Virus record (IMG/VR): IMGVR_UViG_2565956711_000013
Span: 1 to 30,818 of that record
Source of the DNA: a virus
Taxonomy: Duplodnaviria > Heunggongvirae > Uroviricota > Caudoviricetes
Direction: 5' to 3' (one strand)
DNA length: 30,818 bases
Shown here: one piece after another, positions 22,532 through 23,288 of the stretch
How positions within the stretch are numbered: position 1 is the stretch's first letter
Layout: the number at the start of each line of letters is the position of its first letter
The notes under the pieces: model-generated
The model's database searches: none
What the model was told of the DNA's origin: nothing
What the model saw: only the letters and a program-made list of their open reading frames with translations
Made by a program: the position numbers and the translations under genes

Positions 22532-22670
22532 AATTACTCCTACGCAAATCCTTTTTATACATAATGTTAAAGATTTACAGATTGGTTCAAAAAAGCTGAG
22601 CACTATCTTGATGATCACCTTAGGAAAATTCTGGTAATATCATCAAAGTTAATCTACTGAGGCATGATAA

Positions 22671-23012
22671 ATGACTGTAAAAATAGGCCGAATTGTGGCT
22701 AAGGATTGTGGTATTGGGCTTCGCATTTCTGGAGATAATATCGAAATAGATTCTTTCCATGGCGAAGATATTAAAGGTGAAGCGGTTATCATAGAGTCAC
22801 ACGCAGACACTTTAATCAAAGACCTACTTGCAATTAAAGAAGCTGAGATATCGTTACGACTGGCAAAATCTGAATTAGAAAATTTACAACGGCAAGAAAT
22901 AACGGTCAGAAGAGCACACGAAATATTCAGCGCTGCTGGTTTATCAAAGTGGCTTAAGGTAGGAACTGACCTTGTTCAACTTGCTACTGCGATAATTAAA
23001 ATGTCGGCGTAA
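22671..23012 (+). CDS. Hypothetical protein, 113 aa, opposite strand to the late operon
   Basis: Only plus-strand gene inside the minus-strand late region; AT-rich; candidate extended -10 promoter TGGTAATAT (about 22634-22642) and RBS GAGG; no family recognised. Confidence 0.5.
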   Translation: MTVKIGRIVAKDCGIGLRISGDNIEIDSFHGEDIKGEAVIIESHADTLIKDLLAIKEAEISLRLAKSELENLQRQEITVRRAHEIFSAAGLSKWLKVGTDLVQLATAIIKMSA

Positions 23013-23064
23013 TATGCACTCAGGTTATGAATAATTAGACCTTGCAGAACCAGCTATAAGCCCA

Positions 23065-23259
23065 CTAATCGAGTTGTAACACACCGTGTTCCAGTGACTC
23101 GGAATAGGCAATCAGCCCGGTGTACTCAGGGATAACCTCACCATCGTCCGCTTCGAACTCAGGGATTGTCCCGGTAGTGATAGTGTATTGTGGCTGACCA
23201 TCTTCTTTAGCGAATGCTGCCAGGTCTTCAATCTGCTTTGCTGTAAGAACTACTGTCAT
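23065..23259 (-). CDS. Hypothetical small acidic protein (~64 aa)
   Basis: Track ORF 23065..23265; second ATG (23257-23259) has a GAGGA RBS at good spacing; convergent with the 22671..23012 gene; no family recognised. Confidence 0.4.
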   Translation of the reverse strand: MTVVLTAKQIEDLAAFAKEDGQPQYTITTGTIPEFEADDGEVIPEYTGLIAYSESLEHGVLQLD

Positions 23260-23288
23260 GCTCATTCCTCAGTTGTTAAAAAGCCCCG

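Follow-up and report, generated by a model that had tools for sequence, protein, structure and literature searches.

A rare opposite-strand gene at the lysis–packaging junction of a lambdoid prophage, very probably a single-gene moron

We analyzed a 30,818-nt stretch of DNA from a virus of the Caudoviricetes (IMG/VR record IMGVR_UViG_2565956711_000013, positions 1 to 30,818; hereafter the window). It is a lambdoid prophage whose late genes lie on the minus strand. Between its lysis cassette and its packaging genes lies a small plus-strand gene of 113 amino acids (aa), and we find that this gene is very probably a self-contained single-gene moron that fills a cargo hotspot. The 64-aa acidic gene that converges on it has the distribution and the constraint of a core late gene that borders the hotspot. 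The explanation that best covers the observations as a whole, and that we favor by a modest measure, is that of a mobile single-gene moron that would be expressed in the lysogen and would protect it. An earlier reading of the window (the original prediction) had described the two genes as a convergent island in a place suited to defence, anti-defence or toxin–antitoxin cargo.

Results

A real gene in a variable cassette of low GC content

The main elements of the junction, with the evidence for each, are:

22542..23060, no strand assigned: variable cargo cassette of ~519 bp with a guanine-plus-cytosine (GC) content of 0.35-0.39 (KSC1031 alignment, GC profile, IMG/VR gaps)
22671..23012, plus strand: gene of the 113-aa orphan protein WP_023277410 (list of open reading frames (ORFs), ATG start)
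22659..22662, plus strand: Shine-Dalgarno GAGG of the 113-aa gene, read in the sequence 8 nt before the ATG and conserved in loci L055 and L006
22632..22640, plus strand: extended -10-like motif TGGTAATAT, a candidate promoter 31 nt before the ATG and likewise conserved in L055 and L006
23065..23259, minus strand: gene of the acidic late-operon protein WP_023277411, phrog_9518, 64 aa (PHROG match, 1.9e-39)

The 113-aa ORF has an ATG start behind its GAGG and is annotated in RefSeq as WP_023277410. In the prophage of Escherichia coli CP55_Sichuan, which is 99.9% identical to the window over the 1-kb junction (22400-23400), the RefSeq annotation gives WP_023277410 as the sole opposite-strand coding sequence from cro to the tail-fibre assembly gene. 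This confirms that it is the only opposite-strand gene in ~27 kb, as had been proposed; the one other real plus-strand gene of the window, the integrase at 1668..2765, lies outside that minus-strand block. The reading frames of the 113-aa family are under purifying selection, since two sister subgroups have a ratio of nonsynonymous to synonymous divergence (dN/dS) of 0.11-0.13 at dS 0.36-0.42, while the window's own subgroup has 9 substitutions, too few for a ratio. We conclude that the 113-aa ORF is a real protein-coding gene, with selection measured in the two sister subgroups and not in the window's own.

The gene lies where the original prediction had placed it, with LysC of the lysis cassette on one side and HNH, TerS and TerL on the other. 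When the junction was compared across related prophages, as had been suggested, the cassette proved to be either present or absent. In an alignment with E. coli KSC1031, homology ends just after ...CATAATTACTCC, directly behind the ribosome-binding site of the HNH gene, and picks up again a few bases short of the acidic gene's stop codon; KSC1031 has a spacer of roughly 60 bp where the window has ~519 bp. The cassette thus fills the whole gap from the HNH ribosome-binding site to the acidic gene's stop codon. It was found in 2 of 5,426 complete E. coli genomes, even at blastn sensitivity. About 10 E. coli genomes have a spacing of 66-68 bp between the HNH and acidic genes, and so do 15 of the 80 IMG/VR loci (L010-L089) that were fetched via the acidic protein. 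These 15 are among the 32 IMG/VR loci with HNH downstream; of the others, one (L055) holds this cassette in a gap of 530 bp, where the encoded copy of the 113-aa protein is 95.6% identical, and in 16 the gap measures 600-2,900 bp.

The composition of the cassette is also foreign. Over 22550-23000 the GC content is 0.35-0.39, compared with 0.52-0.61 in the flanks, which bears out the AT-rich block described earlier. Variable presence and deviant base composition, two marks of a moron, are therefore both found in the cassette; a third, a terminator of its own, is missing from the window's copy. The proposal that the 113-aa gene is accessory cargo between late modules is upheld by its absence from close relatives, with their 66-68 bp spacer, and by this composition. 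The best explanation is that the cassette was acquired by recombination into the lysis–packaging slot of an SfV/e14-like lambdoid prophage.

A very rare family of lone opposite-strand genes

WP_023277410 forms a single 90% cluster among 5.8 billion proteins, with members in E. coli and Salmonella Mgulani. A HMMER scan of 1.84 billion representatives added one true relative, P0002 (113 aa, 39% identity, gapless); P0002 and P0126 both align without gaps, at 39-41% identity and an equal length of 113 aa. Three further, repetitive HMMER matches (P0003-P0005) were judged spurious, because repeats inflate their scores; P0003, moreover, lacks any Pfam identity. The junction survey turned up a 116-aa opposite-strand ORF at the same slot in L067 and L070, and this group is a remote homologue, collinear over its full length (hhalign E 6e-6; BLASTP against P0002, 6e-8). 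A profile built from all three branches retrieves 7 clusters in total from the 5.8 billion proteins, all from Enterobacteriaceae and none of them named. The carriers are gut Enterobacteriaceae from pig and cattle, together with Salmonella Mgulani. A tblastn search with the 113-aa protein against 50,697 phage records gave no match even at E up to 1.

The family occupies two positions. The window group and the 116-aa group lie immediately upstream of HNH-TerS-TerL, and their neighbor on the far side varies, being the acidic gene or an ORF of 127 or 76 aa. The P0002/P0126 group has a DNA_pol3_theta gene as its neighbor in the nin region. In each context that was read, at either position, the family member is a lone gene running against the surrounding phage operon within a patch of low GC content, and the homologue in L004 carries the same signature (GC 0.37). 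Members without the acidic gene stand beside unrelated proteins of 127, 76, 101 or 63 aa, also in the nin region; the late-strand neighbors of the other 113-aa family members are likewise unrelated proteins.

The junction is a hypervariable cargo slot

We clustered the sequences that flank the acidic gene, taking the first 500 bp on its downstream side from 78 loci and 500 bp on its upstream side from 77. Downstream there are 38 sequence types among the 78 loci, mostly with GC 0.34-0.46, and upstream there are 15 types among 77. The cargo ORFs of the slot lie on either strand, are mostly of low GC content and are almost all unannotated. Against Pfam and PADLOC, the alternative cargoes gave a DUF2513 match, a weak Lar-like zinc-ribbon match and a weak HEPN-like match, the last for TaiEcA.

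TaiEcA and AtiEcA of phage phi80 are a tail-assembly-inhibition defence and its counter-defence, encoded in a 'noncontiguous operon' upstream of the packaging module (He et al. 2024, PMC11364771). In three loci (L045, L047 and L048) an opposite-strand ORF of 204 aa, with a 76-aa ORF behind it, occupies 72..897 nt downstream of the acidic-gene homologue, and the 204-aa protein is 99% identical to the product of the phi80 opposite-strand gene between rha and cos. Judged by size, strand and neighbors, these two ORFs are taiEcA (orf63) and atiEcA (orf64). In E. coli Nissle 1917 an opposite-strand ORF of 204 aa lies at this place too (L003, 2311..2925), and by size, strand and position it is probably TaiEcA; from the sizes, strands and order of the genes, the whole Tai/Ati pair is probably present there. 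TaiEcA has an RX4H (MRNDLAH) HEPN-like motif and a weak PADLOC match to CARF_HEPN (E 0.004). Lambda bor lies in the equivalent place and orientation, its position having been checked in NC_001416. We conclude that the slot is a cargo hotspot of an already described kind and that the 113-aa gene is among its rarer fillings. Of the functions for which the location had been thought suited, defence gains from the experimentally proven Tai/Ati pair in the same slot elsewhere, and a toxin–antitoxin function found no support.

Other fillings, seen within the first 500-3000 bp downstream, include a 199-aa protein with a HEMGH metalloprotease-like motif (L024), 63-aa opposite-strand zinc-ribbon, Lar-like proteins (L031, L056), a DUF2513 protein (L033), membrane proteins of 159-200 aa (L022, L032, L062) and, in L050, a 157-aa opposite-strand ORF with GC 0.32.

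The convergent acidic gene is a conserved late gene

The acidic ORF converges on the 113-aa gene as had been described. Counted from the second ATG, whose Shine-Dalgarno spacing is better, it has 64 aa, and its net charge is -11. The profile search that the original prediction had recommended for both proteins identified it as phrog_9518, a family of unknown function, with residues 1-64 on profile positions 2-65 of 66. The two genes therefore do not form an island in the sense first proposed, as the acidic member is a conserved late gene. Its protein occurs in more than 260 clusters at 88-100% identity in Citrobacter, Escherichia, Enterobacter, Kluyvera, Leclercia and Klebsiella, and this level is kept across prophages of these six genera with differing lysis and packaging modules. 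Homologues are present in mEp390 and SaltyDalty, and N15 gp56 is 53% identical.

Over 78 comparisons of the acidic gene, the median dS was 0.84 and dN 0.03, with dN/dS 0.035. It is the protein, and not the DNA, that is conserved, because synonymous sites have diverged this far at so low a dN; we accordingly rejected the idea that the gene is a mere anchor for recombination at the DNA level. The gene is present with an empty slot (15 of 78 loci) or with any of the 38 downstream types. Because its distribution is independent of the cargo and its constraint is strong, we regard it as a core late gene, evidently with an important role, bordering the hotspot, and, as far as sequence and distribution can tell, it is neither cargo nor a partner of the 113-aa gene. 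The extreme constraint suggests that the protein may have a conserved binding partner, possibly of the host. That both ORFs might be conserved virion or lysis accessory proteins had been named as the outcome that would speak against the cargo proposal; the acidic gene is indeed conserved, while the 113-aa gene is rare cargo.

A pair of the Tai/Ati type, or of the Tab/Atab type of the Pseudomonas phage JBD26, would have the 113-aa protein, made in the lysogen, block incoming phages and the acidic protein, made only after induction, neutralize it, which would spare the prophage from poisoning itself. The layout is that of phi80 taiEcA/atiEcA and JBD26 tab/atab, with an opposite-strand gene in the late operon beside a small late-strand gene. 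The acidic gene is the immediate neighbor in 5 of 5 loci of the window subgroup, a protein of 64 aa with so strong an acidic charge could plausibly bind in a stoichiometric manner, and antidotes need not resemble AtiEcA (He et al., PMC11364771). However, the same acidic gene is found with no cargo in the 15 empty loci and beside no fewer than 37 other types of cargo, among them Tai with its own Ati, and the 113-aa family exists without it, beside unrelated proteins and in the nin region. A cognate antidote would also be expected to track its partner, but the acidic protein keeps its 88-100% identity and its dN/dS whatever its neighbor. Finally, phi80, the phage that encodes AtiEcA, shows no detectable match to it; on this ground we rejected its identification as AtiEcA. 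A pair of this kind is thus very unlikely.

A toxin–antitoxin module might also come to mind, because the two genes are small and adjacent, one encodes a very acidic protein, and they lie at an AT-rich site in a mobile element. The genes are, however, convergent and not co-transcribed, they do not co-occur across genomes, and neither matches a toxin or antitoxin family in Pfam, NCBIfam or PADLOC, while the acidic gene behaves as a core late gene. We rejected this reading on orientation and distribution, and consider it the most improbable of those weighed here.

What the 113-aa protein looks like

Profile and structure searches left the 113-aa protein without a relative of known function. Scans of Pfam, PHROGs, PADLOC and NCBIfam, with the single sequence and with each member, gave nothing significant for the family; phrog_36866, of unknown function, was matched by 4 of 8 members at 1.6e-5. 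The sequence has no signal peptide, lipobox or transmembrane segment.

AlphaFold2 (AF2) runs with 3 and with 8 sequences both predict C-terminal helices at residues 45-70, 79-89 and 101-110, with a predicted local distance difference test (pLDDT) score of 86-92 over residues 50-110. Residues 1-45 are rich in strands and weakly resemble the repeats of a right-handed beta-helix. Three of 8 family members match Pfam Beta_helix (PF13229), all below the gathering threshold, with a best E of 6.8e-4; the one member whose score is shown, P0128, reaches 13.7 bits against a cut-off of 25.9. The likeness to such PbH1 repeats is clearest in the 116-aa group (IKGNSGDGVRV...ISENGGHGVNY), where the N-terminal 45 residues resemble two turns. 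A difference is that only about two such turns would be present and that AF2 gives no confident fold for the N-terminus.

The prophage around the junction

The remaining features of the window that bear on the junction and its surroundings are:

22181..22531, minus strand: HNH endonuclease gene (Pfam HNH, 2.4e-10; RefSeq annotation of the junction-matching prophage)
23289..23612, minus strand: Rz1-like o-spanin lipoprotein gene, LysC (Pfam LysC, 2.6e-18; RefSeq annotation)
23431..23823, minus strand: Rz-like i-spanin ORF, 130 aa (weak DUF2570 match)
23278..23300, minus strand: terminator-like hairpin GCCUCGC-AAUA-GCGGGGC + U5 (RNA fold -16 kcal/mol, z = -3.7)
25576..26328, minus strand: antiterminator (late gene order)
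545..1579, minus strand: host dihydrouridine synthase gene (Pfam Dus, 2e-104)
1668..2765, plus strand: tyrosine integrase (Phage_integrase, 1e-20)

The late genes run from the antiterminator through two holins, a GH19 endolysin and the Rz-like ORF to Rz1/LysC, the acidic ORF and HNH, and then to a P27-family TerS, TerL, portal, an HK97-type head and a contractile tail. HNH, the first gene of the HK97-type packaging module (HNH, P27-family TerS, TerL), is one border of the hotspot. The Rz1/LysC gene closes the lysis cassette and overlaps the Rz-like ORF, which has no RefSeq annotation in the junction-matching prophage, where only lysC is listed; the start annotated for LysC (MQNSRSH...) probably lies too far upstream of its lipobox, LLTGC.

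The hairpin at 23278..23300 overlaps the Rz1/LysC stop codon just upstream of the ribosome-binding site of the acidic gene. One of 200 shuffles folded equally well, and the sequence is conserved in E. coli KSC1031; a simple terminator scan did not pick the hairpin up. It looks like an intrinsic terminator within the late operon, one that the antiterminated polymerase would read through.

The prophage is integrated at the dus gene, because the host Dus gene adjoins the integrase at the left end of the window. The integrase in turn adjoins the tail-fibre end of the prophage. The CP55_Sichuan prophage differs at this end, where it has a recombinase and umuDC instead. A second lone opposite-strand gene, of 159 or 140 aa and without a Pfam match, lies between antiterminator and holin in L094/L095 (7751..8230, plus strand) and L006 (8002..8424, plus strand), so that this gap looks like a second cargo slot of the late operon. 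In the window the same gap has no equivalent gene, only a 108-aa minus-strand ORF (25168..25494).

Discussion

Comparison with known systems

A small gene set against the late operon at the lysis–packaging junction has several precedents. In the phi80 Tai/Ati system, too, an opposite-strand gene breaks into a Q-dependent late operon where the lysis genes give way to the packaging module, and in L045, L047 and L048, as well as in Nissle 1917 by gene layout, that gene occupies the same slot downstream of the acidic-gene homologue. In the lysogen, taiEcA is expressed constitutively, and expressing Q lowers its level (PMC11364771). By inference, the 113-aa gene would likewise be on in the lysogen and be dampened by late antisense transcription. 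The differences are that the 113-aa protein is shorter than TaiEcA (113 versus 204 aa), that its family lacks the RX4H HEPN-like motif, and that no dedicated co-occurring late-strand antidote was identified for it. WP_023277410 was not found in the accessible part of the supplementary data of that paper (PMC11364771).

Two further comparisons concern single genes. JBD26 tab is an 83-aa minus-strand defence gene in the late operon that has its own promoter and provides constitutive prophage-encoded defence (Patel et al. 2024, PMC10884400). On this published description, Tab resembles the 113-aa gene in being a small orphan opposite-strand gene inside the late operon; in contrast, tab is always accompanied by atab. 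Lambda bor is a single opposite-strand gene directly after Rz/Rz1 and before cos and the terminase, but the 113-aa protein lacks both a signal peptide and a lipobox, and Pfam scans show no similarity to Bor. Bor is an outer-membrane lipoprotein that confers serum resistance and is expressed from the prophage; the gene was reportedly described by Barondess and Beckwith in 1990.

The term moron is said to have been defined by Juhala and Hendrix for HK97 and HK022. As in those phages, an extra gene stands here between conserved genes, with deviant composition, a presumed promoter of its own and variable presence, whereas the window cassette has no recognizable terminator and only a weak promoter match; hairpins are found in two sister subfamilies. 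HK97 gp15 has been cited as a moron in the work on Tai (PMC11364771). The architecture of an opposite-strand moron at the lysis–packaging junction is therefore known from lambda bor and phi80 Tai/Ati, and from JBD26 Tab/Atab at a neighboring position. What is new is the protein family, which is extremely rare (7 clusters), unannotated and without a detectable relative of known function.

A proposed mode of action

Because the 113-aa gene points against the Q-dependent late transcript, it needs a promoter of its own, and the candidate TGGTAATAT at 22632 may drive it. With such a promoter needed and the late operon silent in the lysogen, the gene is probably expressed there. After induction, antiterminated late transcription would cross the gene antisense on its way toward HNH and the terminase and would dampen it, a logic that would be that of the 'noncontiguous operon' of phi80 taiEcA. 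The protein would protect the lysogen from other phages through protein–protein binding, with the N-terminal beta-helix-like segment as an interaction surface, probably ordered only on oligomerization or binding, and the three-helix C-terminal domain as a scaffold.

Protection through protein binding is taken as the likeliest function by analogy with Tai, Tab and other morons. On that analogy, anti-phage protection of the lysogen may well be what the gene does, at somewhat less than an even chance. That the target it binds would be one of the invader's structural or assembly proteins is considerably less certain, and we regard it as rather unlikely. A more specific version has the 113/116-aa family as a single-protein anti-phage system whose N-terminus would co-assemble with, and poison, a beta-helical or fibrous virion component, such as the tailspike, tail fibre or needle of an incoming phage. 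Antisense late transcription would then take the place of a dedicated antidote protein in avoiding self-poisoning. We consider this version slightly less likely still.

Several results weigh against a mobile, lysogen-expressed and protective moron. The extended -10-like motif noted in the original prediction is well placed, but its class (TGNTAWWAT) occurs 3 times in the window where 3.05 are expected by chance, and a two-hexamer sigma-70 scan found no promoter at the 113-aa gene. The window's copy also has no intrinsic terminator, with no stable hairpin in 23013-23064 (z +0.7); its transcript would therefore enter the acidic gene antisense. The family profile shows no homology to phi80 TaiEcA (hhalign probability 0.1%), and no defence model in PADLOC resembles the family. 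Profile searches of PDB sequences gave coiled-coil noise only, and Foldseek searches of the AF2 model against PDB and BFVD gave no match with E <1. In both AF2 runs residues 1-43 have a pLDDT below 50, so the beta-helix idea depends on sub-threshold sequence signals. Finally, the other cargoes are mostly uncharacterized, so that 'defence hotspot' depends on Tai and on analogy with published hotspots, and lambda bor demonstrates that the same position can hold a host-fitness or virulence gene and not an anti-phage gene.

With regard to the terminator, strong hairpins close the genes of both sister subfamilies (L067 4240..4315, minus strand; L094 5352..5400, plus strand; L004 6349..6370, plus strand), with a 12-bp stem TTTGACATGGCT/AGCCATGTCAAA (z -3.8) or with GGCTGGC/GCCAGCC (z -2.4). 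The window cassette may thus be a trimmed version from which the terminator hairpin has gone.

The precedent of bor raises the question of a role in lysogenic conversion or host fitness, in which the gene would be active in the lysogen and would act on host physiology, for example on stress tolerance, colonization or regulation, and not on other phages. Position and orientation are those of lambda bor, the carriers are gut Enterobacteriaceae (pig, cattle, Salmonella Mgulani), low GC content and rarity are typical of conversion genes, and no sequence feature of the protein is specifically anti-phage. However, a protein with no signal peptide, lipobox or transmembrane segment is no Bor-like surface protein, there is no match to a virulence or regulator family in Pfam or NCBIfam, and the only experimentally characterized cargo found in this slot is anti-phage. 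We therefore think a host-fitness role improbable.

Alternatively, the gene might serve the phage's own cycle, as an anti-defence protein or by regulating packaging or the timing of lysis, and would then be switched on soon after infection or induction and not in the lysogen. Of the three subgroups, two adjoin HNH and the terminase, and the third lies in the nin region among early and delayed-early accessory genes, where anti-defence genes and regulators are common; small phage proteins with a binding segment that passes from disorder to order are typical inhibitors. On the other side, the gene opposes the late operon and, in the nin copies, the rightward early operon, so that no known phage transcript includes it, and it is dispensable, being missing from nearly all relatives. 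A function in the phage cycle appears about as doubtful to us as one in host fitness.

Implications

The mobile, lysogen-expressed and protective moron thus remains the explanation toward which we lean. Sequence alone says nothing yet on function, and the 113-aa gene is a reasonable candidate for a defence screen. The analysis separates a true cargo gene from an exceptionally constrained acidic neighbor that is widespread in enterobacterial prophages, and this acidic protein may merit study in its own right. If the 113-aa gene protects the lysogen, it would add a new family of very small proteins to the prophage-encoded defences. The lysis–packaging junction of HK97/SfV-type prophages would then be a cargo slot as rich as those of P2 and P4, and its 38 fillings in 78 loci, mostly uncharacterized, provide a ready list of candidates for screening.

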